In this document: positions 1 through 18,446 of the stretch, piece by piece
How the letters are laid out: each line of letters starts with the position of its first letter
Position numbering within the stretch: position 1 is the stretch's first letter
NCBI GenBank assembly: GCA_023131055.1
Contig: JAGMAB010000007.1
Coordinates: 1-18,817 of the forward strand
Direction of reading: 5' to 3'
Source: Candidatus Parcubacteria bacterium
GTDB taxonomy: Bacteria; Patescibacteriota; Minisyncoccia; Minisyncoccales; JAGMAB01
Length of the DNA: 18,817 nt
Notes under the pieces: generated by a model
Databases searched by the model: none
Told to the model about the DNA's origin: nothing
Seen by the model: only the letters and a program-made list of their open reading frames with translations
Program-made: the position numbers and the translations under genes

Positions 1-326
1 GCAATTACATCAATCTGCCATTTTGCGTCCAAAGGAATCTTGTTTTTTGCCAGCCAGACCTCGGATACTTTTATCAATTTTCTCTGTTTGGCAAAATTCA
101 CTTTTTCTTCCGGTGGAATAGATTTGCGTCCTGATTTAATTCTAATTGTTTTTACCTCAATAAAACAAATATCATCTCCTTTTTTGGCAATAATATCTAT
201 TTCTCCTTTTTGAGGACTTCCCGTAAAACGAAAACAATAATTTCTATCCAGAATTTTATAGCCCTTTCTTTTCAAATAATCCTCGGCAATTTTCTCTCCC
301 AAATTACCTGTCTGCCTTGTGTTCAT
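1..326 (-). CDS. YraN family (UPF0102) putative endonuclease. The C-terminus lies beyond the window edge.
   Basis: Reverse-complement translation from ATG (cat at 324-326) gives MNTRQTGNLGEKIAEDYLKRKGYKILDRNYCFRFTGSPQKGEIDIIAKKGDDICFIEVKT... The GE..A..YL..KGY.IL.RN and GEIDII motifs are typical of YraN. The reading frame stays open to position 1. Confidence 0.6.
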   Translation of the reverse strand, partial: MNTRQTGNLGEKIAEDYLKRKGYKILDRNYCFRFTGSPQKGEIDIIAKKGDDICFIEVKTIRIKSGRKSIPPEEKVNFAKQRKLIKVSEVWLAKNKIPLDAKWQIDVI

Positions 327-426
327 AAAATAGGAAGTAGAAAAAGTTTAAATTTTAATTGTATTTTATAACAGAAAACTTAATTCGGCAATTTGGATAA
401 ATTAAAACGATTGTGGATAATTAAAC

Positions 427-455
427 TTGACAGGATTTATTGATTTGATATACTT
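427..455 (+). promoter_or_regulatory. Sigma-70-like promoter for the downstream small RNA. It has TTGACA (427-432), a 16-nt spacer, and an extended -10 TGaTATACT (446-454).
   Basis: Near-consensus -35 and -10 hexamers with a TGn extension. The predicted start site is about 459-462, right at the 11-nt segment that pairs with 587-597. Confidence 0.5.
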
Positions 456-460
456 AAAAT

Positions 461-637
461 GTCAAGCACGGGAACAATCGCAACTCCGAAAATCCGAGAC
501 CTTATAGTCATCGGATTTTCTTTTTATTAAAAAATATACTATTCTGAATACGTGGAGTTTCAAGGGGCCACCTCATGGCGAGGTTTCCGTGCTTGACACT
601 CGGAATGAGGGGTTCGATTCCCCTTGGCTCCACGCCA
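461..637 (+). ncRNA. Structured small RNA of about 175 nt. Its 3' domain (564-632) is a tmRNA/tRNA-Ala-like acceptor and T-arm minihelix. Candidate reduced or atypical tmRNA-like RNA.
   Basis: Acceptor 5' strand GGGGCCA (564-570) pairs with TGGCTCC (625-631), including a G3:U70 wobble. T-arm is AGGGG/TTCGATT/CCCCT (608-624) and the discriminator is A632. Stem TCAT/ATGA (573-576/605-608) closes a 28-nt loop. The loop segment CCGTGCTTGAC (587-597) is perfectly complementary to GTCAAGCACGG (461-471) at the predicted 5' end. A local hairpin pairs GAAAATCCGA (487-496) with TCGGATTTTC (512-521). An alternative fold pairs CGTGGAG (551-557) with CTCCACG (628-634), followed by CCA (635-637). Confidence 0.45.
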
Positions 638-675
638 AAAATCGTTCCGCTTACAGCAGGACGATTTTTAGTTTG
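638..675. terminator. Bidirectional rho-independent terminator hairpin.
   Basis: AAAAATCGT (638-646) pairs with ACGATTTTT (664-672), and a T-run follows on both strands. It lies between the small RNA (plus strand) and the 3' end of the minus-strand CDS at 702. Confidence 0.5.
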
Positions 676-701
676 AAAAAAATCGCATAATATGGATACA
701 T

Positions 702-1130
702 TTATCCGCTAATAGCAGCAAGAATTCCTGAACCTATAATTACAAACAATAATCCTAATATTTTCAACAATGTTATTGATTCTCCTAAGAAAAATCCTAT
801 TAAAACCGCAATTGCGATACTTCCTCCAATAATTATCGGACCTGCAACTGAAATAGCAAGTCCAGATCCGTAAGCTTTTAGCGCAAAATAATCAATTGTT
901 AAAGCACATACTCCTGCTAATACAGCAAACAAAATTCCTTTTGGATTAGAAAACAAAGTTGTTGTTTTAATTTTAGGTAGTAGAAAAATTAAACCCAAAA
1001 CAACAGCAGTAAGTGAAACAATTATTGCGCCAAATAAATAATTTATTTTGTCTGCAGCTTGCTGATGAAAAACTGTCCAAGCACCAAAAGCAACTGCGGC
1101 GATTATTGCGAAAATTATTCCTGGATTCAT
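702..1130 (-). CDS. Small 4-TM membrane protein, EamA/DMT-superfamily-like single-domain transporter.
   Basis: 142 aa with four hydrophobic helices and Gly-rich packing motifs (GPIIIGGSIAIAVLIGFFLGE). Size and topology match half-size EamA/SMR-like proteins. Confidence 0.5.
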   Translation of the reverse strand: MNPGIIFAIIAAVAFGAWTVFHQQAADKINYLFGAIIVSLTAVVLGLIFLLPKIKTTTLFSNPKGILFAVLAGVCALTIDYFALKAYGSGLAISVAGPIIIGGSIAIAVLIGFFLGESITLLKILGLLFVIIGSGILAAISG

Positions 1131-1198
1131 AATATTAATAGATTATTGATGTAAGTATATAAATATTTTCTTCTAGTGTCTAATTGATTTATTATTTG

Positions 1199-1702
1199 TT
1201 AGAGAAAATTCTGGATTTTTTCCAAACTATTTTCAAGATTAAAAACAATATCAAAATTTTTAATTTCTTTTGGTTTAATCCATTTATATTCTGTGTGTTC
1301 CCAATCTAATTTTATCTCTGGTTTGTTCCTTAATTTTATTAAAACAGGATGAACAATCCAAGTTTTTTTTATTTCAGTATCTGTAAACTGATAGAATTCT
1401 CCAATATGAATTGATAATATATTATTATCGCGCTCAATTCCTAATTCTTCTCTAATTTCTTCAAGGACTTTCTCGCGAATTGGTTTTAATTCATCTAAAT
1501 AACCGGCAACTGTGTTCCATTTTCCCTGATATGTTCTGACCTTATCGCTTCTTTTCAAAAGAAGAATATTATTTTGATATTCAATAAAAACGGTTATTAC
1601 CGGCGCGGTGTCAGAATTTGAATAATCAATTCTTCCGTCTGGAAATTTAGGCAGTTTTTCATCAAATTGTTTTATAATTTCTAAAATTTTCTGCTCATTC
1701 AT
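1199..1702 (-). CDS. NUDIX hydrolase.
   Basis: Nudix box-like segment GKWNTVAGYLDELKPIREKVLEEIREELGI, matching the G..E..REuxEExGu pattern. Length is 167 aa. Confidence 0.75.
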   Translation of the reverse strand: MNEQKILEIIKQFDEKLPKFPDGRIDYSNSDTAPVITVFIEYQNNILLLKRSDKVRTYQGKWNTVAGYLDELKPIREKVLEEIREELGIERDNNILSIHIGEFYQFTDTEIKKTWIVHPVLIKLRNKPEIKLDWEHTEYKWIKPKEIKNFDIVFNLENSLEKIQNFL

Positions 1703-1714
1703 AAAAAGCTTAAT

Positions 1715-1933
1715 TTACTTTTTAAAAAAATCGTCTGCTTTAAGTCCTGATAGAAGCAAAATGGACTGAAATGTTCCATAGGGAATTTCTTTTTTACCTA
1801 TTTTCACAATAACCGTCCGCGTTGGATTACCTGTTTTACGGAATTTAGCATGGCTTCCTTTTTGAGAAACAAAAACAAAGCCCTTGGAAAGAAAGACTTT
1901 TATAACAATCTTTAATCTAATGGGTTTAGGCAT
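1715..1933 (-). CDS. hicA: HicA-family mRNA interferase toxin.
   Basis: 72 aa with KGFVFVSQKGSHAKFRK...RTVIVKIGKKEIPYGTFQSILLLSGL. This matches the HicA core (GSH motif, PxGT...IL...GL tail). It overlaps the upstream hicB stop by 8 nt. Confidence 0.7.
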   Translation of the reverse strand: MPKPIRLKIVIKVFLSKGFVFVSQKGSHAKFRKTGNPTRTVIVKIGKKEIPYGTFQSILLLSGLKADDFFKK

Positions 1934-2144
1934 ATTCTAAAGCAAATGGAACAATATCTGGTCGTTCCACCTTTACCGCCTTTGATACTGGCACATCTTC
2001 AAAGTAAAGCTCTAACGCTTCCCGAAGACTATCTAAAGCCTCTTTTTTTGTTTCTCCAAAACTAGAAACCCCGGTGTTTAAATTCCAGGACACATAATAC
2101 TTGCCTTCTTTCCAAACTATGTTTTTTAAGTTTATTTTACGCAT
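1926..2144 (-). CDS. hicB: HicB-family antitoxin (short UPF0150-type).
   Basis: 72 aa with KEGKYYVSWNLNTGVSSFGETKKEALDSLREALELYFED, resembling the HicB N-terminal domain. It sits immediately upstream of hicA and overlaps it. Confidence 0.6.
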   Translation of the reverse strand: MRKINLKNIVWKEGKYYVSWNLNTGVSSFGETKKEALDSLREALELYFEDVPVSKAVKVERPDIVPFALEYA

Positions 2145-2229
2145 ATGTTTTTAGAGGTTATTTCTATTTTTAGAGTATCAAATTAAAAAATTAAGTCAAA
2201 TTTAATCATAAAAAAATCTTATTGATTTA

Positions 2230-3336
2230 TTATAAATTTGAAACAAAATAATTTTTAACAGCAAACTCAAATTGCTCAATAAAAAGATTTTTGAAATAAC
2301 TAATATTGTTTTGTTCATAAAATAAAATAATCGCTTTTTTGTATTCTTCTTCTTTAACACTGCGATAAGAAAGCGGACAAATATTATTAGCCATTAAAAT
2401 AGCGTTAGCAGCCAATCTGCTTGTTCGTTTATTGCCATCGTCAAACGGTTGAATATAAGCAACCATTACCATTAAAATAACGGCTTTGGCAAAAATGTTT
2501 TTTTCTTGATTAACTATTGCGCAAGTTTTTTCTAACGCTTCTCTGATTTGAAAAACATTATCTATTGGACAATATGCGGTGCCGGTAATTCCAACCGGTA
2601 ATTTTCTAAGCCCGCTACTAATATCCAAATCTTTAGTCAAAAGAAAATGTATATCTTCCAGTTTGGCAACTGTAATTTTTTTAAACGCCAAAAGATTTTT
2701 CCTGATATATTCCAAAACATTTTTATGATTCAAAATCATAATTGCTTCTTTTTTTTTGCGGCCTTTGGCTTGCTTGTTATGTTTAATCAAAAATTCTGTC
2801 TCTAAAAGAGTATAAGTATTTCCTTCAATAGCAGAAGATTTCCAACTTAATTCTATAACTAATCGCTCAAATTCGCGCTTAAAATTTGCCTTTGGTAATT
2901 TTTTAATATTTTTTTGATATTCAAAAGCAAGCTGGTTAAGCTCTTTTTCTTCATCAACAATAAAAATATTTTTAAAAATATCAACAAGTTCAAAATTAAA
3001 ACTTTTTTTACCCCTTCTTTGATCCGGCGCAATTTTGAAATAATCATTTACATCAATCGGCTTTAAAAGATTATATTGATTAGATAATTGATAGACCACG
3101 CTTCTGCCTTTACCAATTCGTTTAACAAAATTAAATTTTAACAATTGATTTAAATCTCTAATTATCGTAATCCTGGAAATTTTAGAAAATTTTTGAACCA
3201 AATCAAAAACCAGTTCGGAAACAGAGATTTTCCCTTGTTTATCAATCAAATTCAGAATTATTTCTTGTCTTTTATTTAATTGGTTAAACTTTAACTCCAT
3301 GATAATTGTATCATTTTTATGCTCTAATTGTATCAT
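2230..3336 (-). CDS. wHTH-Fic/Doc family protein with a non-canonical active-site motif QPFDDGNKRTSR. An alternative start is at 3300.
   Basis: N-terminal winged-HTH-like region (residues about 13-85). SSAIEGN matches the Fic inhibitory helix motif [ST]xxxE[GN]. The Fic core IQPFDDGNKRTSRLAANAIL corresponds to HxFx(D/E)GN(G/K)RxxR, with the His codon read as CAA (Gln). The GNKR version is Doc-like. Confidence 0.75.
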   Translation of the reverse strand: MIQLEHKNDTIIMELKFNQLNKRQEIILNLIDKQGKISVSELVFDLVQKFSKISRITIIRDLNQLLKFNFVKRIGKGRSVVYQLSNQYNLLKPIDVNDYFKIAPDQRRGKKSFNFELVDIFKNIFIVDEEKELNQLAFEYQKNIKKLPKANFKREFERLVIELSWKSSAIEGNTYTLLETEFLIKHNKQAKGRKKKEAIMILNHKNVLEYIRKNLLAFKKITVAKLEDIHFLLTKDLDISSGLRKLPVGITGTAYCPIDNVFQIREALEKTCAIVNQEKNIFAKAVILMVMVAYIQPFDDGNKRTSRLAANAILMANNICPLSYRSVKEEEYKKAIILFYEQNNISYFKNLFIEQFEFAVKNYFVSNL

Positions 3337-3346
3337 TTATGATACA
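3303..3346. promoter_or_regulatory. Direct repeats and a palindrome at the 5' end of the Fic gene.
   Basis: 14-bp direct repeat TAATTGTATCATTT at 3303-3316 and 3325-3338. 18-bp palindrome TGTATCATTTATGATACA at 3329-3346. Two possible ATG starts (3336 and 3300) are embedded in it. Confidence 0.3.
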
Positions 3347-3369
3347 AAACACAACCAATTATATCTTTG

Positions 3370-3440
3370 TGGACTCAGCGAGAATCGAACTCGCATTTCC
3401 GCAATGCGAATGCGGTGTAATGCCATTATACTATGAGCCC
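3370..3440 (-). tRNA. tRNA-Ala (anticodon CGC). CCA is not encoded.
   Basis: Reverse complement reads GGGCTCA TA GTAT..ATTAC A CCGCA TTCGCAT TGCGG AAAT GCGAG TTCGATT CTCGC TGAGTCC A. It has a 7-bp acceptor with G3:U70, anticodon loop uuCGCau, canonical T-loop TTCGATT, and is followed by CAA. Confidence 0.85.
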
Positions 3441-3505
3441 ATGTGTGAATTTTCAATTTCTAATTTTCAATTTTCATTCAATTTTCAATGTCTAAATTTT
3501 CAAAT
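3441..3505. repeat. AT-rich tandem repeat with period of about 16 nt (AATTTTCAAT core, 4-5 copies) upstream of tRNA-Ala.
   Basis: tgAATTTTCAATttct/AATTTTCAATtttcat/tcAATTTTCAATgtct/aAATTTTCAAattaaa. On the minus strand this reads as repeated TTGAAAATT (-35-like TTGAAA) upstream of the tRNA. Confidence 0.5.
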
Positions 3506-3957
3506 TAAATCAAAATGTTTTTAAGTTCAGCCAACGAACGGATTTTAATGCCTGAATAATTTTTAATTTTGTTTTCGCGGTCAATCAGTATGGCTTTCAT
3601 TCCCAATTTTTCAGCCGGTAAAATATCTCTTTCTATTTCATCGCCGACCATTACTGCTTGTTTTGGCTTAACATTAAACTTTTCTAAAACCATTAAAAAC
3701 GCTCTCGTGTCTGGTTTTATAAATTTTGTTTCTTTTGGCGTAAAAATCTCAAAATGTTTTTCCAAACCAAGATTAGAAAACAAAAAAGCAGAACCAGTAG
3801 TCAAAATCGCTTTTTGGCAGGGAAGTCCAAAAACTTCTTTTGCATCGTCAAAAAGCCCACAATCAACATTTCCCTTGAGAAAATCCTCTTTTTTGACTTC
3901 TTTTGCAAAAAATCCCAACGTCCCAAAAAAATCAAATATTATCAGTTGTGATTTCAT
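3505..3957 (-). CDS. HAD-superfamily hydrolase, start trimmed to the internal ATG.
   Basis: MKSQLIIFDFFGTL (motif I with D-x-F rather than DxD), ILTTGS (motif II-like), VMVGDEIERDI (motif III GDxxxD). The longer ORF track start at 4050 would overlap a tRNA gene and is rejected. Confidence 0.7.
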   Translation of the reverse strand: MKSQLIIFDFFGTLGFFAKEVKKEDFLKGNVDCGLFDDAKEVFGLPCQKAILTTGSAFLFSNLGLEKHFEIFTPKETKFIKPDTRAFLMVLEKFNVKPKQAVMVGDEIERDILPAEKLGMKAILIDRENKIKNYSGIKIRSLAELKNILI

Positions 3958-3960
3958 ATG

Positions 3961-4031
3961 TCGGGCTACCGAGATTTGCACTCGGGCTAAATTCTCCCGA
4001 AGAACTCGTGCTACTATTACACTATAGCCCG
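3961..4031 (-). tRNA. tRNA-Pro (anticodon CGG) with atypical D- and T-loops. CCA is not encoded.
   Basis: Reverse complement reads CGGGCTA TA GTGT AATAGTA GCAC G AGTTC TTCGGGA GAATT TAGC CCGAG TGCAAAT CTCGG TAGCCCG A. Acceptor and anticodon stems are good, with U33 and G37. The T-loop reads UGCAAAU (G at position 55) and the D-loop lacks GG. Confidence 0.55.
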
Positions 4032-4067
4032 ATATACAATCATTTATCAATAATTAATAATCATTTA

Positions 4068-4090
4068 CTTAGAAATTAAAAATTTCTAAG
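4068..4090 (-). terminator. Perfect 10-bp stem hairpin overlapping the cca stop codon.
   Basis: CTTAGAAATT aaa AATTTCTAAG. It sits at the 3' end of the minus-strand cca gene, where the plus-strand context is AT-rich. Confidence 0.4.
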
Positions 4091-5552
4091 TGACCCAGTA
4101 TTTTTGCTTTGTCATCTTATCTTTTTTCATTTCTAATGTTTCTCTTTGTTTTTTGGCTTCCCGGGTTTTTGATTCTAATTCTTTGTCAGATAGTTGACCT
4201 AATTTCTTGATTTCTTTTTCCAAAAATTCTTTTTTGTTTTTTTGAGGGTCTTCCAAAACATAACCAAGTAAAACATCTAAAATTTGTCCTATCTTTATAC
4301 AAGGCCTGATTTTCAAAAGCCGCATTACATCATCTCCTTTAACTTTTAATTTCATAACTGAAATCGGGTCTTGGGCAACTTTTTCAATTAAATATCTAAG
4401 ATGCCTTAATTTATACGGTTCCGCTTTGGGACAGCCAGACCCAATCCTATCGCACATTCTCACTTGAAGCAGTTCATTTATGTTTTCTACGCCAACCTGA
4501 CGCACTAATCTCCTTACCGACGCTTTGCCAACCTCGTCAACATTATAATAAAACAAATGATATCTGACTAATTTAAAAATCTTCTCAATATCTTTTTTGG
4601 AAAATTTCAACCGATTTAGCAATTGAATAGTCATTTTTGCTCCAACTATTTCGTGGTTGTAAAAAGTAGCGTTTGGTCCTTTGCCTCGCTTGGTTCTAGG
4701 CTTTCCAATATCGTGAAGCAAAGCAGCCAAGCGAACATATTTGTTAAAATTGCTCTTAACAGCAAAATCCAAAGAACGCAAACTATGTTCATAACAATCA
4801 TAAATATGATGCTTGTTCTGGCTTATTCCATAACCCTCTTCTAATTCCGGAATAATATATTTTAACATTTTAAGCTGCCTTAAAAGCTCTATGCCTTCAG
4901 ACGCTTTTTCAGACATAATAATTTTCATCAGTTCATCTCTGATTCGCTCTTTGGAAATTGTTCCTAATAAAATAGAATTTTTTTTGATTGCTTGTTTGGT
5001 TTTTTCTTCAATCTGCCATCCGCCAGCTGGCGGACTTCCCAAAACAGATATTAAACGAACCGCTCTGAGCATTCTCAAAGCATCTTCATTAAACCTGTTT
5101 TCCGGCTTGCCCACCGCGCGAATAAGTTTATTCTCTAAATCTTTTTGCCCGTTAAATAAGTCAATAATTTCCAATTTTCCATCCATTGCTATTGCATTGA
5201 CAGTAAAGTCGCGTCTTTTCAAATCCTGTTCAATTGTCTTGGCAAACTTGATTTCATCAGGATGCCGTTTGTCAGTATATTTTGCTTCGCAGCGATAAGT
5301 GGTAATTTCAATTTCCTTAAGCTCTGGTTTTTTACTGCCTGTTTTAACGGTCACTGTTAAAAACTTGTTCTCATAAAAACTTTTAGGGAATATTTTTTGA
5401 ATTTCTTCCGGCTTAGCGTTAGTGGCAACATCCCAATCTTTGGGCTTAATTCCCGTTAAAAAATCCCTGACGCAGCCGCCAACAATATGAGCGCTAAAAC
5501 GCTTTTTCTTTAATTTATCAATTACAAGTTTTACTTCTTTTGGAATTTCCAT
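4086..5552 (-). CDS. cca: CCA-adding tRNA nucleotidyltransferase with an HD domain.
   Basis: N-terminal pol-beta nucleotidyltransferase motif GGCVRDFLTGIKPKDWDVATNAKPEEI. HD motif LLHDIGKP. Length 488 aa with a K/E-rich C-terminus. Confidence 0.85.
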   Translation of the reverse strand: MEIPKEVKLVIDKLKKKRFSAHIVGGCVRDFLTGIKPKDWDVATNAKPEEIQKIFPKSFYENKFLTVTVKTGSKKPELKEIEITTYRCEAKYTDKRHPDEIKFAKTIEQDLKRRDFTVNAIAMDGKLEIIDLFNGQKDLENKLIRAVGKPENRFNEDALRMLRAVRLISVLGSPPAGGWQIEEKTKQAIKKNSILLGTISKERIRDELMKIIMSEKASEGIELLRQLKMLKYIIPELEEGYGISQNKHHIYDCYEHSLRSLDFAVKSNFNKYVRLAALLHDIGKPRTKRGKGPNATFYNHEIVGAKMTIQLLNRLKFSKKDIEKIFKLVRYHLFYYNVDEVGKASVRRLVRQVGVENINELLQVRMCDRIGSGCPKAEPYKLRHLRYLIEKVAQDPISVMKLKVKGDDVMRLLKIRPCIKIGQILDVLLGYVLEDPQKNKKEFLEKEIKKLGQLSDKELESKTREAKKQRETLEMKKDKMTKQKYWVT

Positions 5553-5617
5553 AATCTAATCTTAACTTAAAAATTTGCTTTTTTCAATTGCCTTTGTTAG
5601 AATGACTTAACTGCCTC

Positions 5618-5689
5618 GCCCTCGTAGTGAAACGGATATCACGCGACGCTTCGGACGTTGAAGTCCGGGTTCGAATCCTGGCGAGGGCA
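5618..5689 (+). tRNA. tRNA-Arg (anticodon TCG). CCA is not encoded.
   Basis: GCCCTCG TA GTGA AACGGATA TCAC G CGACG CTTCGGA CGTTG AAGT CCGGG TTCGAAT CCTGG CGAGGGC A, followed by CAA. Confidence 0.85.
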
Positions 5690-5693
5690 CAAT

Positions 5694-6146
5694 ATGAATT
5701 TTCAATTACTAATGTTTAAAAAAATAGTTTTAATAATTTTATTGGCAGGTTTTGTTTTAATTCCTTTGATTTCACACGCAGCCGGATTAGTGCCTTGCGG
5801 AGAAGAAGGAAATCCTTGCCAACTGTGTGATTTTTTTGTTTTAGTTGATAATGTAATTGATTTTGTTTTGATAAAATTAGTTCCGCCATTGGCGGTTCTG
5901 ATGTTAGTAATCGGCGGAATAATGTTTGTAGGCGCGACTTTGGAATTTCTGCCGGGCGGACCAACTCTTTTAAGCCAGGCAAAAGCAATAATGACTTCAG
6001 TAGTAATCGGCTTAATCATAATTTATGGCGGCTGGATTATTATAGGATTATTTTTGAATACAATTGGTTTATCTGAATGGACTGGCGGAACTACTGGTAT
6101 TTTTTCAAACTGGAATCAAGGTTTTTTCACAATCCCTTGCGAGTAA
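5694..6146 (+). CDS. Secreted 2-TM cysteine-containing small membrane protein, candidate VirB2/TrbC-like pilin.
   Basis: MNFQLLMFKKIVLIILLAGFVLIPLISHA | AGLVPCGEEGNPCQLCDFF..., that is a signal peptide with AxA-like site. Two hydrophobic helices follow (LAVLMLVIGGIMFVGA and VVIGLIIIYGGWIIIGLFL) and a C-terminal Cys. The ORF track start at 5658 overlaps tRNA-Arg and was trimmed. Confidence 0.45.
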   Translation: MNFQLLMFKKIVLIILLAGFVLIPLISHAAGLVPCGEEGNPCQLCDFFVLVDNVIDFVLIKLVPPLAVLMLVIGGIMFVGATLEFLPGGPTLLSQAKAIMTSVVIGLIIIYGGWIIIGLFLNTIGLSEWTGGTTGIFSNWNQGFFTIPCE

Positions 6147-6151
6147 TTCCC

Positions 6152-6222
6152 GCCCCCATAACTTAATGGAAAAGTAGTTGCCTCTTAAGCAATTAATCCA
6201 GGTTCGAATCCTGGTGGGGGCA
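6152..6222 (+). tRNA. tRNA-Lys (anticodon CTT). CCA is not encoded.
   Basis: GCCCCCA TA ACTT AATGGAA AAGT A GTTGC CTCTTAA GCAAT TAAT CCAGG TTCGAAT CCTGG TGGGGGC A, followed by CAA. Confidence 0.85.
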
Positions 6223-6249
6223 CAAAGATAATTAATAATTTTTAAAACT

Positions 6250-6516
6250 ATGTTAAATCCAGAAGAAAAAACAAAAACAATCAAAAAATACAAAGTTCAT
6301 GAAACAGACACCGGGTCACCGGAAGTGCAGATTGCTTTGCTTTCCGAAGAAATCAAGCGCCTGCTTTTACATTTGAAAAAACACTCTAAAGACTTTCATT
6401 CCAAAAGGGGATTGTTAAAAATGGTTGCGAACAGAAGAAAACTTTTAACATATTTGAAAGAAGAAAGTACAAGAAGATATAACATCATTATTAAAAAAAT
6501 CGGTTTAAAAAAATGA
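6250..6516 (+). CDS. rpsO: 30S ribosomal protein S15.
   Basis: [49 protein letters not shown] matches the conserved S15 core. Confidence 0.9.
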
Positions 6517-7037
6517 TTATAAAGCATATTGGGCAAAGAGTGGCTGTGTTGATTGATGTTCAGAATTTATATCATTCAGCCAAAAATTTATATCAGTCCA
6601 GGGTTAATTTCCAGGAAATTTTGAAGTCTGCTGTGAGCGGGAGAAATTTAATTAGGGCTTTTGCTTATGTAGTAAGGACAAAAACCGGCGAAGAAAAGCC
6701 GTTTTTTGAAGCGCTCACAAAATTAGGAATTGAAACAAGAGTAAGAGACCTTCAGGAATTTTACGGCGGTATGAAAAAAGCTGACTGGGATGTGGGCATT
6801 ACCGTTGACGCTATCAGAATTTCTCCTGATGTTGACACTATTGTTCTAGGTTCAGGAGACGGAGATTTTCTCCAGTTGGTTGATTTTTTAAAAAACCAGG
6901 GGAAAAGAGTGGAAGTTATCGCTTTTGACAGGTCTGCGTCCCTAAAATTAAAAGAAGCGGCTGACGAATTTATTGACATAGGAAAAGAACCTAAAAAATA
7001 TTTATTAAAAAAAGAAAAAATTGTAGAAAAAAAATGA
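6513..7037 (+). CDS. NYN-domain (LabA-like, PIN-like) predicted ribonuclease.
   Basis: [15 protein letters not shown]...LIRAFAYV...[14 protein letters not shown]...[31 protein letters not shown], with the acidic residues typical of NYN/LabA. The start ATGA overlaps the rpsO stop and the stop ATGA overlaps the pnp start. Confidence 0.75.
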
Positions 7038-9133
7038 AAGAAAAAATTTACAAATTAGACATTGATGGCAAGGAACTTATTATTAAAATTACTGATTTAA
7101 CAGAACAAGCGTCCGGAAGTTGCTTAATCCAATATGGCGACACATTGGTTTTGGCAACAGCAGTAATGTCAAAACAGGAAAGAGAAGGCATAGATTTTTT
7201 TCCTTTAAGCGTTGAATATCAGGAAAGATTTTACGCCGCGGGGAAAATTCTGGGCTCCCGTTATATCAGAAGAGAAAGCCGTCCTTCTGATGAAGCGATT
7301 TTAACCGCGCGTTTGATTGACAGAACAATCAGGCCGCTTTTCCCGGAAAACCTAAAAAAAGAAATTCAAGTTGTTCTCACCTGTCTTTCATGGGACAGAG
7401 AAAACGACCCTGATATAATCTGCTTGATTGCCGCTTCTTTAAGTTTGGCAAGTTCTGACATCCCTTGGTCGGGTCCTATTGCCAGCGTAAGAGTCGGACG
7501 GCTGGATAACAAATTTATTCTCAATCCTACTTACGAGCAAAGAGAAAAAAGCGATTTTGATTTAGTAATATCAGGCATTGAAAAAAATCATGAGATTTTA
7601 ATCAATATGCTTGAAGGAGAAGGACAGGAAACAGAAGAAGACGCAGTTCTGCAGGCGGTTAAATTTTCAATGCCTTATTTAAAAAAACTTATTTCCTTTC
7701 AAAAACAGATTATTCAAGAAATAGGCAAAGAAAAAAGCTTGGTCAAAGCTCAAGAACAGGACATTGACTTGGAAAAAGACATCAAAGAATTCTTGGAACA
7801 ACGATTGGAAAAAATTGAAAACCTTGGCGCTCTTAAAGACGACTTGCTCTCTTTTGTTGCGGAAAAATATCCTGAACCAAAGAAAATAAATTACGCCAAA
7901 GATATTTTTGAAAAAGAAATAGAAAAAGCGCTCCATCAAAGAATAATTGCAAAAGAAGAAAGGCCTGATAGCAGGAAATTAGACGAAACAAGAGAAATTT
8001 CCTGCGCAACCGGCATCTTGCCAAGAACGCACGGGTCAGGGCTTTTCTGCCGCGGACTGACCAAAACTTTATCTATTCTTACGCTGGGCGCGCCGGGAGA
8101 TGTCCGTTTTTTGGAAGGAATGGAAATTGTCGGCAAGAAAAGGTTTATGCATCATTATAATTTCCCTGCTTACTGCGTCGGCGAAGTAAAGCCGTTCAGA
8201 GGTCCCGGGCGAAGAGAAATAGGGCATGGAATGCTGGCTGAAAAAGCTTTATTGCCGCTAATCCCTGATTCGGATGAATTTCCCTACACAATCAGGATTG
8301 TTTCTGAAAATTTGTCTTCCAACGGTTCCACATCTATGGCTTCTATTTCATCTTCTTGCTTGGCTCTGATGGATGCCGGGGTGCCGATAAAAACTCCTGT
8401 TGCTGGAATTGCCATTGGCTTAATACAAGATTCTTCAGGAAATTACAAAATTTTAACTGATATTCAGGGTCCGGAAGACCATTACGGCGATATGGACTTT
8501 AAAGTGGCAGGAACTGAAAAAGGCATAACCGCTATTCAAATGGATGTTAAAATTAAAGGCATTACTGAACAAATTCTAAAGCAGGCATTAGAACAAGGCA
8601 AAAAAGCAAGAAAGCAGATTTTGGAAAAAATGAAAAAAACAATAGCAAGTCCAAGGACAGAACTTTCGCCATTTGCCCCTAAAATTAAAACCTTGCAGAT
8701 TAATCCTGAAAAAATAAGAGAAGTAATCGGACCCGGCGGAAAAATAATTAACAAAATAATTGAAGATTGCGGAGTTACCATTGACATTGAGGATTCCGGC
8801 AAGATTTTTGTCGCTTCAGAATCAGAACAAGCAGTGGATAAAGCAATGGAATGGATAAAAAATATTACCAGAGAAGTGGAAATAGGAGAAATTTTCCAGG
8901 GCAAGGTGAAAAGAATTTTGGACTTTGGCGCTTTTGTTGAAATACTGCCGGGACAGGACGGCTTGGTTCATATTTCCGAATTAGCTCCGTATAGAGTGGA
9001 AAAAGTTGAAGACATAGTTAAAATAGGCGATACAGTGTCAGTAAAAGTGATTTCTGTTGACGAGCAAGGACGGATAAACCTTTCAATAAAACAAATAAAA
9101 GAACAAAATGACCATGGAAGAAAACACAAATAA
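7034..9133 (+). CDS. pnp: Polynucleotide phosphorylase.
   Basis: Two RNase PH-like domains (SNGSTSMASISSSCLALMDAGVPI), a KH domain (IREVIGPGGKIINKI) and an S1 domain (GKVKRILDFGAFVEILPGQDGLVHISEL). Length 699 aa. Confidence 0.95.
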   Translation: MKEKIYKLDIDGKELIIKITDLTEQASGSCLIQYGDTLVLATAVMSKQEREGIDFFPLSVEYQERFYAAGKILGSRYIRRESRPSDEAILTARLIDRTIRPLFPENLKKEIQVVLTCLSWDRENDPDIICLIAASLSLASSDIPWSGPIASVRVGRLDNKFILNPTYEQREKSDFDLVISGIEKNHEILINMLEGEGQETEEDAVLQAVKFSMPYLKKLISFQKQIIQEIGKEKSLVKAQEQDIDLEKDIKEFLEQRLEKIENLGALKDDLLSFVAEKYPEPKKINYAKDIFEKEIEKALHQRIIAKEERPDSRKLDETREISCATGILPRTHGSGLFCRGLTKTLSILTLGAPGDVRFLEGMEIVGKKRFMHHYNFPAYCVGEVKPFRGPGRREIGHGMLAEKALLPLIPDSDEFPYTIRIVSENLSSNGSTSMASISSSCLALMDAGVPIKTPVAGIAIGLIQDSSGNYKILTDIQGPEDHYGDMDFKVAGTEKGITAIQMDVKIKGITEQILKQALEQGKKARKQILEKMKKTIASPRTELSPFAPKIKTLQINPEKIREVIGPGGKIINKIIEDCGVTIDIEDSGKIFVASESEQAVDKAMEWIKNITREVEIGEIFQGKVKRILDFGAFVEILPGQDGLVHISELAPYRVEKVEDIVKIGDTVSVKVISVDEQGRINLSIKQIKEQNDHGRKHK

Positions 9134-10040
9134 GGTAAATGAAGAAAAACAAAAAAAGGAGTTTTTGAAAAGAACAGAAATACGAACAATGGCAAAAGAT
9201 ATCACTAAATTAAGAAAGATAGAAACCGAGAAAGAAAAACAAAGAATTATGGGTTTGCGACCCAAAGAACAAGACAAAAAACCCGTGCTTGCGCCAACAG
9301 CAGATATAAACAAGGAAACCTTAATTCCTAAGCCCTTGTCTAAAAAATCTTTTCCTTTTAAAAAACTTTTACCCAGAGCAATAGTTGTTTTAATAATTAT
9401 TTGCGCGCTTGGCTTGATTTTTTGGCTCATTGGAGCAAAAAAGGCTCCGGATGAGAAACCATTTGTACCGGAAATTACTCAACCAGATGAAGAAGAAATT
9501 GAAGAAAAAATTCCGGAAAAAATACCGGAAATTCATATTCCTGCTTGCTTAATTTTAACTGAACAAACAGAAATTCTGGAAATTTCTGAAACCCAAGACA
9601 TTGTTCAAGTTTTCTCTCAAATAATGGAGCAGGAATTGCCAAATGATGCTTTAATCCGGGTTGTAATTAAAAATATTAGCCAAGGACGCTTAGTATCTTT
9701 ACAAGAACTATCTTCTGTTTTTCAAATAGAAATTTCTTCAGAAATTTTTCAGAAATTTGGGCCAGATTATAGCTTAATTATTTATGGACAAGAGCAAGGA
9801 AAAAGAATTGCCTTTATCGCTAATATAAAAGAAAAACAAGGGCTAACTGAATCATTAGACAAATGGGAACAAGAATTAAAAGAATTCAAACCGGCAAAAT
9901 ATAAAGGCATTGCTTTCCGCTATCTGACTATCTCTGAACAAGACCACATTGGAATTTGTTATTCTTTTATTGACGATTTGTTTATCTGGACTTCTTCGGG
10001 CGAATTAATGGTTAAAATTATTGATAAACTAAGTGATTAA
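9108..10040 (+). CDS. Hypothetical membrane-anchored protein with a charged N-terminus, one TM helix and a C-terminal domain of about 190 aa.
   Basis: 310-aa ORF with K/E-rich N-terminal region, TM IVVLIIICALGLIFWLIG, then an acidic linker and a globular domain. It overlaps the pnp 3' end by 26 nt. The start could be a downstream Met. Confidence 0.45.
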   Translation: MTMEENTNKVNEEKQKKEFLKRTEIRTMAKDITKLRKIETEKEKQRIMGLRPKEQDKKPVLAPTADINKETLIPKPLSKKSFPFKKLLPRAIVVLIIICALGLIFWLIGAKKAPDEKPFVPEITQPDEEEIEEKIPEKIPEIHIPACLILTEQTEILEISETQDIVQVFSQIMEQELPNDALIRVVIKNISQGRLVSLQELSSVFQIEISSEIFQKFGPDYSLIIYGQEQGKRIAFIANIKEKQGLTESLDKWEQELKEFKPAKYKGIAFRYLTISEQDHIGICYSFIDDLFIWTSSGELMVKIIDKLSD

Positions 10041-10425
10041 AATACATTATATCATGATTGATAAAAAAATAGTCCAAGAGCTAAAACAAAAACTGGAAAA
10101 AGAAAAAACAGCTATTGAAAAAGAGCTTAAAACATTTGCCAAAAAAGACAAGAAATTAAAAGGGGACTGGGACACCCGTTTTCCGCGCTGGAACGGTGAT
10201 TCAAGCAGCAGTTCATCTATGGAAACAGCTGCGGATGAAGTTGAAGAATATTCCACTCTTTTGCCTATTGAACACAGCTTGGAATTAAAATTAAAAGATA
10301 TTAATGCGGCTTTGGAAAAACTCAAAAATAAAAAATACGGAATCTGCGAAAAATGCAAAAAGCCAATCAGCATTAAAAGATTAAAGGTTTATCCGGAAGC
10401 CAAAACCTGCAAAAAGTGCAATTAA
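10033..10425 (+). CDS. DksA/TraR-family C4 zinc-finger protein. An alternative start is at 10054.
   Basis: C-terminal CEKCKKPISIKRLKVYPEAKTCKKC (C4 zinc finger) preceded by coiled-coil-like KE-rich region. Confidence 0.7.
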   Translation: MIKIHYIMIDKKIVQELKQKLEKEKTAIEKELKTFAKKDKKLKGDWDTRFPRWNGDSSSSSSMETAADEVEEYSTLLPIEHSLELKLKDINAALEKLKNKKYGICEKCKKPISIKRLKVYPEAKTCKKCN

Positions 10426-10431
10426 AACATT

Positions 10432-11949
10432 ATGCCTTCTAAAGTTTTTTCAGCGGCTCTTTCGGGTTTAGAAGCCCAGCTCATTGAAGTGGAAGTAGAT
10501 GCCTCATACGGATTGAGGCATTTTGAAATTGTCGGCTTGCCTGACAAAGCGGTTCAGGAAGCAAAAGAAAGAGTTGGAGCCGCAATTGAAAGCTCTGGAT
10601 TTAAATCTCCCCATCACCAGTCAACCAGGGTATTGGTCTCTCTGGCGCCGGCTGATTTGAAAAAAGAAGGCTCTTTCTACGATTTACCAATTGCTTTGGC
10701 TTATCTTTTAGCCGCAGAAAAAATCAGATTCAATCCTTTGGATAAAATTCTTTTGGGAGAGTTAGCTTTGGACGGACGGCTAAGGCCGATAAAAGGAGTT
10801 GTTTCTTTTGCCATTGCTTGCAAGGAAAAAGGTTTTTCCGAACTAATCCTGCCAAAAGAAAACAGAACCGAAGCTTCTTTAGTAAAGGGATTGAAAGTAA
10901 TAGGCGTGGAAAATTTAGGAGAAGCAATCGCATATTTAGAAGGGAAAAAAGAAATTTCTGGGTTCAAAATAGATATAAAAGATTTTTTCCAGGCCTCTAA
11001 ATATCCTGTTGATTTGGCTTATGTCAAAGGACAGGAATCAGCTAAACGGGCTCTGGAAATCGCTGCGGCTGGCAGCCATAACATTATGATGACGGGACCG
11101 CCGGGCGCTGGCAAAAGCTTGTTAGCCAAAGCAATTCCGTCAATTCTGCCCCGGCTTTCTTTTGCGGAATCTTTGGAAGTGACGAAAATTTACAGCGTAT
11201 CCGGCTTGCTTCCCCAAAAAAAACCTTTAATCAATTTAAGGCCTTTTCGTTCGCCGCATCATACTTCCTCTGAAGTATCTTTGATTGGCGGCGGCAATCC
11301 TTTGAGAGCGGGAGAAATTACTTTATCCCATCGCGGAATTCTTTTCTTGGACGAGTTTCCTGAATTCCACCGCGATGTCTTGGAAAGTTTAAGGCAGCCT
11401 TTGGAAGAGGGAAAAATCACTTTATTGCGCGCAAAACAATGTTTAACTCTGCCTGCTCGTTTTACTTTAGTGGCAGCGGCCAATCCCTGTCCCTGCGGTT
11501 TTCATGGAGACCCTGAAAGAGAATGCACTTGCACGCCTTCCCAAATTCAAATGTACAGAAGAAAACTGTCAGGTCCTTTAATGGATCGGCTTGACCTTTT
11601 TATCCCGGTTCCGGCTTTAAAATACGAAAAATTAACCTCTGCTGACAAAGAAAATTCCAGCGCAAGCATTAAACAAAGAGTGGAAAAAGCCAGAAAAATC
11701 CAGCAAGACCGGTTTTCAGGAGATAAAACGAATTCAGAAATGGAAATCCCTGAAATAAAAAAATACTGCTCAATTGACAGTAAAACAGAAAACCTTTTAA
11801 GAGATTATGTTGATTCCGGCAAGTTATCAGCTCGCGGGTATCACCGGGTTTTGAAAACAGCCAGGACAATTGCTGATTTAGACAATTCTGAAAATATCAG
11901 ACAAAATCATTTATCCGAAGCAATTTCTTACCGCTTCCGCCAGAATTAA
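10432..11949 (+). CDS. YifB/ComM-family Mg-chelatase-like AAA+ ATPase.
   Basis: N-terminal Lon-like domain (VEVDASYGLRHFEIVGLPDKAVQEAKERV). Walker A GPPGAGKS, Walker B ILFLDEFPEF. C-terminal ComM/YifB tail. Length 505 aa. Confidence 0.9.
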   Translation: MPSKVFSAALSGLEAQLIEVEVDASYGLRHFEIVGLPDKAVQEAKERVGAAIESSGFKSPHHQSTRVLVSLAPADLKKEGSFYDLPIALAYLLAAEKIRFNPLDKILLGELALDGRLRPIKGVVSFAIACKEKGFSELILPKENRTEASLVKGLKVIGVENLGEAIAYLEGKKEISGFKIDIKDFFQASKYPVDLAYVKGQESAKRALEIAAAGSHNIMMTGPPGAGKSLLAKAIPSILPRLSFAESLEVTKIYSVSGLLPQKKPLINLRPFRSPHHTSSEVSLIGGGNPLRAGEITLSHRGILFLDEFPEFHRDVLESLRQPLEEGKITLLRAKQCLTLPARFTLVAAANPCPCGFHGDPERECTCTPSQIQMYRRKLSGPLMDRLDLFIPVPALKYEKLTSADKENSSASIKQRVEKARKIQQDRFSGDKTNSEMEIPEIKKYCSIDSKTENLLRDYVDSGKLSARGYHRVLKTARTIADLDNSENIRQNHLSEAISYRFRQN

Positions 11950-11953
11950 ATTA

Positions 11954-12961
11954 TTACTGAAAAGGATTTCTGGCTCCATTCACTCCAAAATGCACATGAC
12001 AGCCGGTAGACATACCCGCGCCGGGCGTGCCCGGCTCGCCGCCCATCAAAGCAATAACCTGTCCTTGAGAAACCTGTTGTCCCTGGCTCACCAACGCTTT
12101 TAAAATATGACCGTACATTGTCACTACTCCGTTAGGATGCAGGATTGTTATATGATTGCCCGCTCCGCCAAAAGCCCAGCGGGAAACAGAATTAGTTAAT
12201 TTTACTTTCAAAACTTTTCCTCCTGCTGCCGCGTAAATCACATCTCCGCATTTGCCGTTGCTGAAATCAATAGCGTTATACCAGTGAAGCCTTTGCGTAA
12301 TGCGGCAGGGAGCGGAAATAGGACAAATAAAATAACTATTAGCCAAAGGAACAGAAGAAGAAACAGCATATTGAACTTTTACCTTAGGCATTTTTCCTTC
12401 AGGAATAATTAAAATATCACCTATAAAAATATCCGCTTCGTTAGAAAGTTCGTTAAAAGCAATTATGTCAGAGGTTTTTCCCTCATATTTTTTAGCAAGC
12501 TCTGAAATTGTCTCGCCGGCTTTAACATGATGAATTATTCCGGAAACAGGGGACACTACTAATTTCTGGCCTATTTGAATAACAGAATTTTTATTTAAAT
12601 CATTTGCCCAAAGCAATGTTTCTAATGTGATGCCAAATTTATGCGCGATTGACCAAAGATTGTCTCCAGCTTCAATCTCATATTCAGTAATCGCTTTTTT
12701 AATGTCCTGTGGCTCATACGCTCCTACTAAAGCTCCCAAAACTTGAGGTGAAAAAATATTCGCCGGCGAACAAGCAGATATGGTATTTTTCCCAATTAAA
12801 AGAAAATCAGGGGATTCTAAAGCAAAACTTTTTGTCGTACTTAAAAACAAATCCTGATTATTATTTTTGACAGAATTTTCCTGCTCTGAATTATTAAAAA
12901 AAGATAAAGAAACCAAACCAATTAAAATAATTGCTACTATCAAAACTGCTTTTTTATACAT
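11954..12961 (-). CDS. Secreted LysM-domain M23 metallopeptidase.
   Basis: Signal/TM N-terminus and two LysM-like segments (YEIEAGDNLWSIAHKFGITLETLLWANDL and HHVKAGETISELAKKYEGKTSDIIAFNEL). M23 motifs HWYNAIDF...HPNGVVTMYGH...GCHVHFGV. Confidence 0.85.
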   Translation of the reverse strand: MYKKAVLIVAIILIGLVSLSFFNNSEQENSVKNNNQDLFLSTTKSFALESPDFLLIGKNTISACSPANIFSPQVLGALVGAYEPQDIKKAITEYEIEAGDNLWSIAHKFGITLETLLWANDLNKNSVIQIGQKLVVSPVSGIIHHVKAGETISELAKKYEGKTSDIIAFNELSNEADIFIGDILIIPEGKMPKVKVQYAVSSSVPLANSYFICPISAPCRITQRLHWYNAIDFSNGKCGDVIYAAAGGKVLKVKLTNSVSRWAFGGAGNHITILHPNGVVTMYGHILKALVSQGQQVSQGQVIALMGGEPGTPGAGMSTGCHVHFGVNGARNPFQ

Positions 12962-12990
12962 ATTATATTAAAATACCTTAACCAAATTAT

Positions 12991-13923: not shown

Positions 13924-13941
13924 ATCTGAAAGATTTATACT

Positions 13942-16041: not shown

Positions 16042-16046
16042 AAAAT

Positions 16047-16068
16047 AAGGGTAAATTAAATTACCCTT
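16047..16068. terminator. Bidirectional terminator hairpin between convergent genes.
   Basis: AAGGGTAA attaaa TTACCCTT. It lies immediately after the VirB6-like stop (16041) and overlaps the SPFH gene stop (16067-16069). Confidence 0.5.
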
Positions 16069-17371: not shown

Positions 17372-17399
17372 TATAATAATTTTGGAATGTGCTGGTTAA

Positions 17400-17427
17400 A
17401 CTATATCACACAATACGAATTTGTCAA
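17400..17427 (-). promoter_or_regulatory. Promoter for the SPFH gene. On the minus strand it reads TTGACA, a 16-nt spacer, then TGtgaTATAGT.
   Basis: The reverse complement of 17422-17427 is TTGACA. The reverse complement of 17400-17405 is TATAGT with an upstream TG. It is followed by a leader of about 55 nt and an AGGAGG ribosome-binding site. Confidence 0.45.
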
Positions 17428-17434
17428 ATTTATC

Positions 17435-17464
17435 TCTGACAACATTCAACGATCGTTGAAAGTT
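17435..17464. promoter_or_regulatory. 30-bp near-perfect palindrome, operator-like, in the divergent intergenic region.
   Basis: GACAACATTCAACGATCGTTGAAAGTTGTC. Its reverse complement differs at only 2 positions. The core CAACGATCGTTG is a perfect 12-mer. Confidence 0.5.
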
Positions 17465-17514
17465 GTCATTGTATGCGCGAGGTTTATCCACAGATAGAAT
17501 GTTTTATGTCAAAA

Positions 17515-17538
17515 GTATCTTGCTACGTAGCACGATAC
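17515..17538. promoter_or_regulatory. 24-bp imperfect palindrome with a perfect 10-bp core.
   Basis: GTATC tt GCTACGTAGC ac GATAC. The GCTACGTAGC core is self-complementary and the outer GTATC/GATAC arms are complementary. Confidence 0.4.
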
Positions 17539-17582
17539 TTTCTTCCTTTTTTCTCTTTTGGATATGACATTTCAAAACAGCC

Positions 17583-17625
17583 TTGACACAAAAAGTTGTC
17601 TTTTATGATTGGTTTGTGATAAAAT
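17583..17625 (+). promoter_or_regulatory. Candidate promoter(s) for the plus-strand operon starting at 17663.
   Basis: TTGACA (17583-17588), 16 nt, TATGAT (17605-17610). A second extended -10, TGaTAAAAT, lies at 17617-17625. Confidence 0.4.
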
Positions 17626-17662
17626 TTAATAAAGGGTAAAATGAATTAAAAGCAAAATCTCT

Positions 17663-18043: not shown

Positions 18044-18044
18044 A

Positions 18045-18431: not shown

Positions 18432-18446
18432 TTTAGCAAAGCGATT

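Follow-up and report, generated by a model that had tools for sequence, protein, structure and literature searches.

A Fic-domain protein with glutamine at the catalytic histidine position, and the conserved repeat element at the start of its gene, in a Candidatus Parcubacteria genome

A catalytic histidine defines Fic enzymes. What does the fold do when this residue is given up? The question is raised by a gene on the minus strand of a stretch of 18,817 nucleotides from a Candidatus Parcubacteria bacterium (GenBank assembly GCA_023131055.1, contig JAGMAB010000007.1, positions 1 to 18,817; the whole stretch is called the window here). The encoded protein, Fic-Q, has an N-terminal winged helix-turn-helix (wHTH) and a Fic domain with glutamine at the place of the histidine. 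It belongs to a widely dispersed subfamily that has fixed glutamine there and has kept the other active-site residues together with the inhibitory glutamate. Is this a second chemistry on the Fic fold, or has the fold been converted to a ligand sensor?

Glutamine in place of the catalytic histidine

The open reading frame (ORF) extends over 2230..3336 on the minus strand and encodes 368 aa. The residue numbers used below follow this ORF, and the start codon is discussed in the next section. The features of the gene that matter for the argument are as follows.

2230..3300, minus strand: coding sequence of the wHTH-Fic(Q) protein, 356 aa, start codon ATG at 3300..3298 (from the ORF, the homologue lengths, the upstream extension not conserved as coding, and the model confidence)
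3115..3270, minus strand: N-terminal wHTH, residues 23-74 (Pfam HTH_DeoR, AlphaFold and the family profile)
3139..3177, minus strand: recognition helix SRITIIRDLNQLL within this wHTH
2821..2838, minus strand: SSAIEG, residues 167-172, the class II Fic inhibitory-helix motif [ST]xxxE[GN] with Glu171 (aligned to TVAIEG of FICD)
2566..2613, minus strand: flap GLRKLPVGITGTAYCP, the target-docking hairpin of Fic enzymes, aligned to GRFRTTQVLVGHHIPP of FICD
2416..2451, minus strand: Fic core motif QPFDDGNKRTSR, with the Gln296 codon CAA at 2449..2451 (FICD alignment)
2395..2676, minus strand: Fic domain (Pfam PF02661, residues 221-314), matched in 112 of 112 family members

Both domains are recognized by Pfam: Fic with E=1.1e-13 (52.2 bits against a cut-off of 24) and HTH_DeoR with E=1.4e-5. 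The AlphaFold model, computed with the family alignment as input, has a mean predicted local distance difference test score (pLDDT) of 94.6 and a predicted template modelling score (pTM) of 0.91. Its N-terminal domain runs through helices H22-34, H39-47 and H55-67 and then strands E71-74 and E81-84, an order that is the winged helix-turn-helix pattern, and the family profile matches the wHTH structures of BlaI and AspA.

Where does the glutamine sit? In a phmmer search of all Protein Data Bank (PDB) sequences the best match is human FICD (E=5e-11), and the alignment, which sets YIQPFDDGNKRTSR on YIHPFIDGNGRTSR, places the core motif QPFDDGNKRTSR on the FICD motif HPFIDGNGRTSR and thereby Gln296 on the catalytic histidine. 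SSAIEGN falls on TVAIEGN of FICD, the helix bearing the inhibitory Glu234, so that Glu171 takes the inhibitory position. Read against HxFx(D/E)GN(G/K)R, in which the histidine is invariant, the motif departs at the histidine and is otherwise intact; the codon, CAA, appears as TTG on the plus strand. A preliminary description of this DNA, made from the letters alone, had proposed a wHTH, an inhibitory-helix motif and a Fic core with glutamine (CAA) for the catalytic histidine, and Pfam, the FICD alignment and AlphaFold all agree with it.

Is the glutamine a peculiarity of one sequence? On the sequences compared, it is a family trait. Among the 120 best homologues (clusters at 90%, with 55-100% identity), 119 have the strict motif Q-P-F-x-D-G-N-K-R; it is missing only from P0113, where QPFEDDNKR nevertheless has the glutamine. 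When 1.84 billion cluster representatives were searched exhaustively with HMMER, 3336 proteins came out at E<=0.001 and 272 at E<=1e-30; at the latter threshold, the family holds at least 272 clusters at 50% identity. Among the best 150 of these representatives, the motif pattern was matched in 119, with glutamine in 117 of them. One of the two other matches lies elsewhere in its protein, whose aligned motif has glutamine, and the second, P0245, has arginine. Most of the full-length representatives that escape the pattern still align with glutamine, and decayed motifs are found in a few singletons (P0194, with methionine, P0215 and P0251).

Homologues with glutamine reach down to about 30% identity, and their hosts include bacteria of the candidate phyla radiation (CPR), Bacteroides and Proteobacteria. 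In the cultured Bacteroides finegoldii (locus L032, 47% identity) the motif is QPFADGNKR; the coding sequence annotated there has no wHTH, and its start is possibly mis-called. Plasmid relatives read QPFADGNKR in Comamonas (L033), QPFADINKR in Massilia (L034) and QAFADVNKR in Sulfitobacter (L035), and these three proteins have an extra C-terminal part of about 100 aa. Other members are found on viral contigs of IMG/VR, some of them among genes that look phage-structural by N-terminal sequence only, unconfirmed by domain search. A search of genome contigs with the single protein gave five loci, of which L005 is spurious. Over 32 distinct loci the glutamine codon is CAG in 19 and CAA in 13, and this use of both codons shows selection for glutamine itself.

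These data bear on the simplest explanation, namely that the codon arose by an error in sequencing or assembly, or that a histidine-type Fic gene has recently become a pseudogene through an inactivating mutation. CAA is indeed only one third-position change, a transversion, from CAT or CAC. However, glutamine stands in essentially all homologues to about 30% identity, in independent assemblies and in cultured isolates; both synonymous codons are used; and the ORF is intact, with a model pLDDT of 94.6. We regard an error or a pseudogene as negligibly probable. The preliminary description had raised a sequencing error and named conservation in orthologues as the check; the counts given above (119 of 120 and 117 of 119) refute the error.

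What has been kept around it? In an alignment of 112 sequences (30-81% identity to the query), W165, H230, R244, P257, Q296, D300, N302, K303, R304 and R307 are invariant. The SSxIEGNT motif of the inhibitory helix is at least 90% conserved, as are its residues S167, S168, I170, E171, G172 and N173. In the flap, which holds the invariant R244 and P257, the same level is reached by V248, I250, G252 and Y255.

Which kind of Fic protein is this? Foldseek against the PDB lists FICD structures first (E=5e-9, 243 aligned columns, root-mean-square deviation 2.4-2.5), followed by Fic-1 of C. elegans, SoFic and BT_2513, with a probability of 1.00 for FICD, SoFic and BT_2513. The family profile run against PDB sequences finds FICD with E=1.4e-21 and no Doc structure at E<=0.001. 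The (S/T)xxxE(G/N) signature that marks class II lies in the same chain, N-terminal to the core (SSAIEG, 167-172), and both Glu171 and the last arginine of the motif (R307) are conserved in the 112 sequences. Together with the sub-threshold score of the Doc model TIGR01550 described below, the Foldseek ranking and the family profile make this, by sequence and predicted fold, a class II, FICD-like Fic protein overall, which is Doc-like only in the lysine of GNKR.

Could it nevertheless be a Doc-type kinase toxin of a Phd/Doc-like toxin-antitoxin pair? The preliminary description took the GNKR motif as Doc-type, and besides the lysine there are weak matches to TIGR01550 (E=0.0038) and to phrog_577, 'Doc-like toxin' (E=5.7e-4); moreover, the glutamine clade stood inside the Doc branch in the 2015 phylogeny of Khater and Mohanty (Sci Rep 5:10804, PMC4454073). 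Yet TIGR01550, an NCBIfam model, scores 17.4 bits, below its cut-off of 38.65, and the family profile leads to FICD and to no Doc structure. The final arginine, missing from the Doc motif (PMC4454073), is invariant here; the inhibitory helix is intramolecular; a tRNA-Ala gene lies upstream in place of a phd-type antitoxin gene; and the catalytic histidine is absent. A Doc kinase is thus very improbable, and the Doc-type label is better given up. NCBIfam has no model specific to the Fic-Q family.

Nor does it fit the defence proteins of the SoFic type. PADLOC reports SoFic (E=2e-18) and PDC-S04 (E=5e-17), but the SoFic match is partial (residues 135-320 on model positions 34-218 of 361), the histidine is absent, and the wHTH is N-terminal rather than C-terminal.

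The element before the start codon

Where does the protein begin, and what lies before it? An ATG at 3336 was considered and rejected as the start. Homologues are mostly about 355 aa long and cover 94-96% of the query; in loci L003 and L004 the frame from the equivalent upstream ATG meets a stop before the conserved N-terminus; and in the AlphaFold model the pLDDT falls below 50 for residues 1-12 only. These three observations place the start at the ATG at 3300, and the repeats found at this end of the ORF consequently sit in noncoding DNA. Thus, the direct repeats and the palindrome that the preliminary description had placed over two candidate start codons are present, but they do not overlap the true one.

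3301..3354, minus strand: conserved noncoding upstream element TTGTGTTTTGTATCATAAATGATACAATTAGAGCATAAAAATGATACAATTATC, 54 nt, in 9 of 9 CPR loci found by protein similarity
3349..3354, minus strand: -35-like hexamer TTGTGT (in most of 29 instances TTGnnn keeps a constant distance; a putative promoter part)
3327..3335, minus strand: extended -10-like TGATACAAT, 16 nt after the -35-like hexamer (predicted from the sigma-70 consensus)
3328..3347, minus strand: inverted repeat TTGTATCAT-AA-ATGATACAA, overlapping the promoter spacer and the -10; putative operator
3303..3316, minus strand: second direct copy of AAATGATACAATTA, 22 bp after the first copy (3325..3338) and 2 nt before the start codon

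On the minus strand the 54 nt before the start codon (3354..3301) read TTGTGT-TTTGTATCATAAATGA-TACAAT-TAGAGCATAAAAATGATACAATTATC. Two kinds of repeat are folded into them: a 14-nt direct repeat, AAATGATACAATTA, at 3325-3338 and 3303-3316, its copies 22 bp apart, and an inverted repeat with 9-nt arms, TTGTATCAT at 3339-3347 and ATGATACAA at 3328-3336. Across loci the inverted repeat takes the general form TTGTATCA-nnnn-TGATACAA, stretched over spacer and -10, and its left arm partly covaries with the right. The two central bases of the palindrome are AA or TT depending on the locus. In the predicted transcript the second direct copy would occupy about +8 to +20, and the ATG usually follows it after 2-6 nt.

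How well is this element kept? Nine CPR loci found from protein similarity alone (L001-L004, L006 and L036-L039) were assigned to Moranbacteria, Buchananbacteria, Wolfebacteria, Peregrinibacteria, Magasanikbacteria and unclassified metagenome-assembled genomes. The element stands directly upstream of the gene in all nine, for instance at 3985-4036 in L003, 628-676 in L004, 3990-4045 in L006 and just before position 5001 in L036-L039. Its 45-nt core is 76-100% identical to that of the window. In the same pairs, the proteins are 56-93% identical and third codon positions 41-62% (41-52% in the six most distant pairs). In L004 the protein is only 60% identical, yet the core is the same in 45 of 45 positions. 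From these comparisons, the repeat element is conserved far beyond neutral expectation.

Metagenome contigs were also scanned with a degenerate pattern of the element. This gave 24 loci, 17 of them with a Fic-Q homologue directly downstream (confirmed by tblastn). Three (L010, L024 and L027) end at the contig end inside an N-terminus, which resembles the Fic-Q of L026 in L010 and L027 and is more divergent in L024; three others (L013, L014 and L031) have only a 29-codon N-terminal remnant.

What might the element be? Over 29 distinct instances, TTGnnn lies 16-17 nt upstream of TACAAT or TACGAT in most, with TG before the -10. Judged by the E. coli consensus, this would be a sigma-70-type promoter with an extended -10 and overlapping operator half-sites. 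A simple promoter consensus scan did not flag it, on account of the weak -35, which matches at only 3 of 6 positions, and no Rfam family matches the element. A wHTH protein with repeated and palindromic sites over its own predicted promoter has the make-up of an autoregulated factor.

Distant relatives (28-48% identity) allow this to be judged by comparison. Upstream of their genes stand unrelated motifs of 9-14 nt, in several direct and inverted copies that are often 22 bp apart: TAATCTTGTCAT in Comamonas and AACTGCGCCA in Massilia, each three times direct and once inverted, and repeats of the AATCGTTTC type in Sulfitobacter. On viral contigs there are copies of TTGAGCT/AGCTCAA, and in L041, L045 and L046 the direct ones are 22 bp apart, the spacing seen in the window. 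The repeat regions lie at 2376-2470 in L033, 2460-2515 in L034 and 2198-2340 in L035, and upstream of the gene in L041, L045 and L046. In the CPR proteins whose genes have the TGATACAA element in common, the recognition helix (SRITIIRDL) is conserved; the proteobacterial proteins have a different one. Both the shared layout of the repeats and this pattern of the helix lend good comparative support to binding of the protein to repeated sites at the promoter of its own gene. The autoregulation suggested in the preliminary description gains strong backing in the same way, from the conserved element and from the iterated motifs of distant relatives.

Two other readings of the repeats were tried and rejected. 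A leaderless mRNA from the second TACAAT copy does not suit the position of the ATG, which follows only 3-5 nt after this copy in most loci and 15-52 nt after it in L001 and L006. As for an iteron or Rep-like role in replication, to which 22-bp direct repeats and an inverted repeat could point, there are only two copies, and the context is chromosomal and housekeeping.

A cassette among housekeeping genes

Does the gene have a constant partner? No neighbour is conserved. Fic-Q occurs as a single insertion in housekeeping surroundings (genes for ribosomal proteins, aminoacyl-tRNA synthetases, tRNAs and the CCA-adding enzyme, among others), and in the window it stands between a tRNA-Ala gene and a hicBA pair.

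3369..3440, minus strand: tRNA-Ala(CGC), directly upstream; context, outside the module
1715..2144, minus strand: toxin-antitoxin pair of HicB-like (1926..2144) and HicA (1715..1933), directly downstream; context, an accessory-gene island

The surroundings change from locus to locus. In L001, whose protein is 93% identical, a different 190-aa ORF takes the place of hicBA. In L022 the element (738-769) directly precedes a homologous hicBA without a Fic gene, and in L018 (1327-1358) it has a tyrosine recombinase gene on one side and an AAA_14/DUF4143 ATPase gene on the other; a gene of this same AAA_14/DUF4143 type follows Fic-Q in L036. In L031 the element (4550-4581) and the 29-codon remnant are found inside an island of toxin-antitoxin-like pairs (MNT/HEPN, RelE-type and VapC-type, assigned by eye from the ORF sequences). 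A tyrosine recombinase or site-specific integrase gene is present within about 2.5 kb in four of the four plasmid loci examined.

The element itself can be doubled. In L006 a second copy follows just after the stop codon (5185-5215; likewise in L007 and L015), so that the gene is flanked on both sides, and L020 has two tandem upstream copies, at 7098-7128 and 7001-7031. These doubled copies suggest that recombination between them can delete or swap the cassette, which would explain the element loci without a Fic gene. Judged from its neighbourhoods, Fic-Q behaves as a mobile accessory cassette.

Is the element then mainly an operator at all? It might instead be a portable strong promoter, the boundary of a recombination cassette, or a regulator at the RNA level, in which the left arm would pair alternatively with copy 1 or copy 2 and mask the start region. 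Its positions upstream of other genes in L018, beside the tyrosine recombinase, and in L022, before hicBA, and upstream of the remnant in L031 would suit the first two forms, as would the copies on both sides of the gene in L006 and the tandem pair in L020. In favour of the RNA form, pairing of the left arm is possible with the one direct copy or the other, and many of the mismatches would allow wobble pairs. Nevertheless, 23 of the 24 pattern matches lie at a Fic-Q 5' end, and the exceptions are explicable by deletion between two direct copies of the element. On the promoter reading, the left arm precedes the predicted start of transcription and would be outside the RNA; it is also the least conserved part, and Rfam has no match. 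Finally, the unrelated half-sites that distant relatives show in the same layout fit co-evolution of protein and DNA. We therefore consider a role other than mainly an operator to be decidedly unlikely.

Some further observations on the window and its relatives may be useful for annotation. For the partner of HicA (PF07927) in the window, a protein of 72 aa, the only match is DUF7387, and L022 has near-identical pairs. Compared with the window, L001 carries additional genes at 1682-3330, between tRNA-Pro and a gene of the HAD family. They comprise a gene for a cysteine-rich protein of 298 aa, a small ORF judged HTH-like by eye only, and an ORF of 132 aa; this region, flanked by tRNA genes, has the look of an accessory-gene hot spot. 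In the window the HAD-family hydrolase ORF (3505-4050, minus strand) has a TTG start and crosses tRNA-Pro (3960-4031, minus strand); its start is probably an ATG near 3957 (MKSQLIIFDFFGTL...), in agreement with the L001 homologue. At 6250-9133 on the plus strand, a gene with an NYN domain, a predicted RNase, lies between rpsO (ribosomal protein S15) and pnp (PNPase), with an overlap of stop and start codons.

What the module may do, and its relation to known systems

Taken together, what would such a locus be? The explanation we favour, and for which we consider the chances evenly balanced, is an autorepressed, mobile, stand-alone module of single-chain antitoxin-toxin type, whose Fic(Q) domain would bind a phosphate ligand without histidine-dependent transfer. 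In the common ancestor of a large Fic subfamily, glutamine would have replaced the catalytic histidine. The one chain carries a wHTH, a linker that holds the inhibitory helix of class II (SSxIEG), and a Fic domain of FICD type whose motif is Q-P-F-x-D-G-N-K-R-T-x-R, as if a type II antitoxin, with its DNA-binding part and its inhibitory helix, had been fused to a Fic toxin in a single polypeptide. The wHTH would bind iterated half-sites TGATACAA, one inverted pair over the spacer and the -10 and a third copy 22 bp further on, directly ahead of the start codon, and would in this way repress its own sigma-70-type promoter. As for the Fic(Q) domain, it retains the phosphate/nucleotide pocket (D, N, K, R, R), the docking flap and the inhibitory glutamate, and lacks the general base. 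Its most probable role is the binding of a nucleotide or another phospho-ligand, and perhaps of a protein partner, without histidine-dependent transfer of AMP or phosphate, and it would be a sensing or sequestering payload domain and no canonical AMPylase or kinase.

Several points weigh against this explanation. That the protein binds the element, represses its gene and takes up a ligand without transfer is in each case inferred from sequence comparisons. The invariance of the active-site loop, the flap and the inhibitory glutamate would fit an active, regulated enzyme at least as well, and the strict retention of glutamine, never replaced by Asn, Ala or Ser, suggests a specific chemical role. 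With regard to the DNA, the left arm of the palindrome is degenerate in L020, L029 and L003, so that the decisive site may be another than the inverted repeat. In L018 and L022 the element stands before genes other than Fic, and in L006 there is a copy on either side of the gene; a portable promoter or a site of recombination would also account for this. The promoter, moreover, is called by the E. coli consensus and has a weak -35.

Is Fic(Q), then, an active toxin or anti-phage effector? Such a protein would use a non-canonical chemistry, would be held in check by the inhibitory glutamate until a trigger releases it, and would be autoregulated by its wHTH as in type II toxin-antitoxin systems. 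Glutamine might orient the nucleophile or a water molecule, like Gln61 of Ras-type GTPases, or the nucleophile (a phosphate or a carboxylate) might have no need of a general base. The invariance of Q296, D300, N302, K303, R304, R307, R244 and P257, with E171 at 90% or more, speaks for this, and an inhibitory helix would be kept only if there is something to inhibit. The neighbourhoods of toxin-antitoxin and defence type, the plasmids and viral contigs, and the PADLOC matches to SoFic and PDC-S04 point the same way, and Khater and Mohanty argued that the glutamine clade may not be catalytically dead (PMC4454073). Against it, the general base is histidine in every characterised Fic/Doc enzyme (PMC4454073), and no Fic enzyme with glutamine at this position is known to be active. 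The PADLOC matches reflect generic Fic-domain similarity, and no partner or target gene is conserved nearby. An active effector is possible, if somewhat doubtful.

To a bolder idea we attach a rather small probability. The glutamine-type Fic domain would be a functional enzyme or switch with a chemistry new to the fold, for example nucleotide hydrolysis or de-modification by a glutamine-positioned water, or transfer to a nucleophile without a general base. The state of the ligand would control binding of the wHTH to the ultra-conserved element, and the element may also serve as a boundary for exchange of this cassette among CPR genomes. The locus is a compact experimental handle: a 356-aa protein and a precisely delimited putative operator of 54 bp.

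How does the protein compare with what is already described? Human FICD/HYPE and the other class II Fic AMPylases and deAMPylases are the best match in both sequence and fold. They share with it the inhibitory helix (S/T)xxxE(G/N) N-terminal to the core, the flap, and xPFxDGNxRTSR with its final arginine. Fic-Q differs from FICD by glutamine for His363, lysine for the second glycine, a wHTH for the tetratricopeptide repeat (TPR) domain, and an identity of only about 21%. With Doc of phage P1 it has the lysine of GNKR in common and, considering the Phd/Doc pair as a whole, the combination of a DNA-binding module, an inhibitory helix and a Fic-fold toxin, here in one chain. Doc, in contrast, consists of one small domain that has the catalytic histidine but neither the final arginine nor a flap hairpin, and its inhibitor, Phd, acts in trans, whereas here the inhibitory helix is intramolecular.

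Fic proteins that bear a helix-turn-helix are also known. CccR of Yersinia represses its own promoter (PMC9755527), and in CbFic2 of Coxiella the Fic activity is controlled by DNA binding (PMC10628234). These two and the Shewanella defence protein SoFic resemble Fic-Q in joining a Fic domain to a helix-turn-helix DNA-binding domain. All three, however, are active AMPylases, and in CccR and CbFic2 the DNA-binding domain is C-terminal rather than N-terminal as here. The helix-turn-helix of SoFic is C-terminal as well, and all three carry the canonical histidine and GNGR.

The closest precedent was found in silico. The clade 'D2' of Khater and Mohanty comprises 45 bacterial sequences with glutamine for histidine and the motif Qx[F/Y]x[D/E][G/V]NKR; it was placed in the Doc branch, called mostly single-domain, and speculated to be possibly not catalytically dead (PMC4454073). 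Full-text literature searches found no experimental work on this clade since 2015, and on Fic proteins without the catalytic histidine, Fic pseudoenzymes and Fic in Patescibacteria nothing relevant beyond that paper. The protein described here, with QPFDDGNKR, and its relatives with DVNKR carry the D2 motif, including the G/V alternative of the proteobacterial relatives (DINKR is also seen), and they too are bacterial. The protein thus belongs to a variant noticed in silico in 2015, and its glutamine is already in the literature. It differs from D2 as described by its N-terminal wHTH, its class II inhibitory helix, its closeness to FICD and a family of at least 272 clusters; it is likened to D2 by motif, and the two sets are not proven to be the same. 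What appears to be new is how large the family is, that it is of class II and FICD-like, that it has an N-terminal wHTH, and that an ultra-conserved, putative promoter/operator element accompanies the gene.

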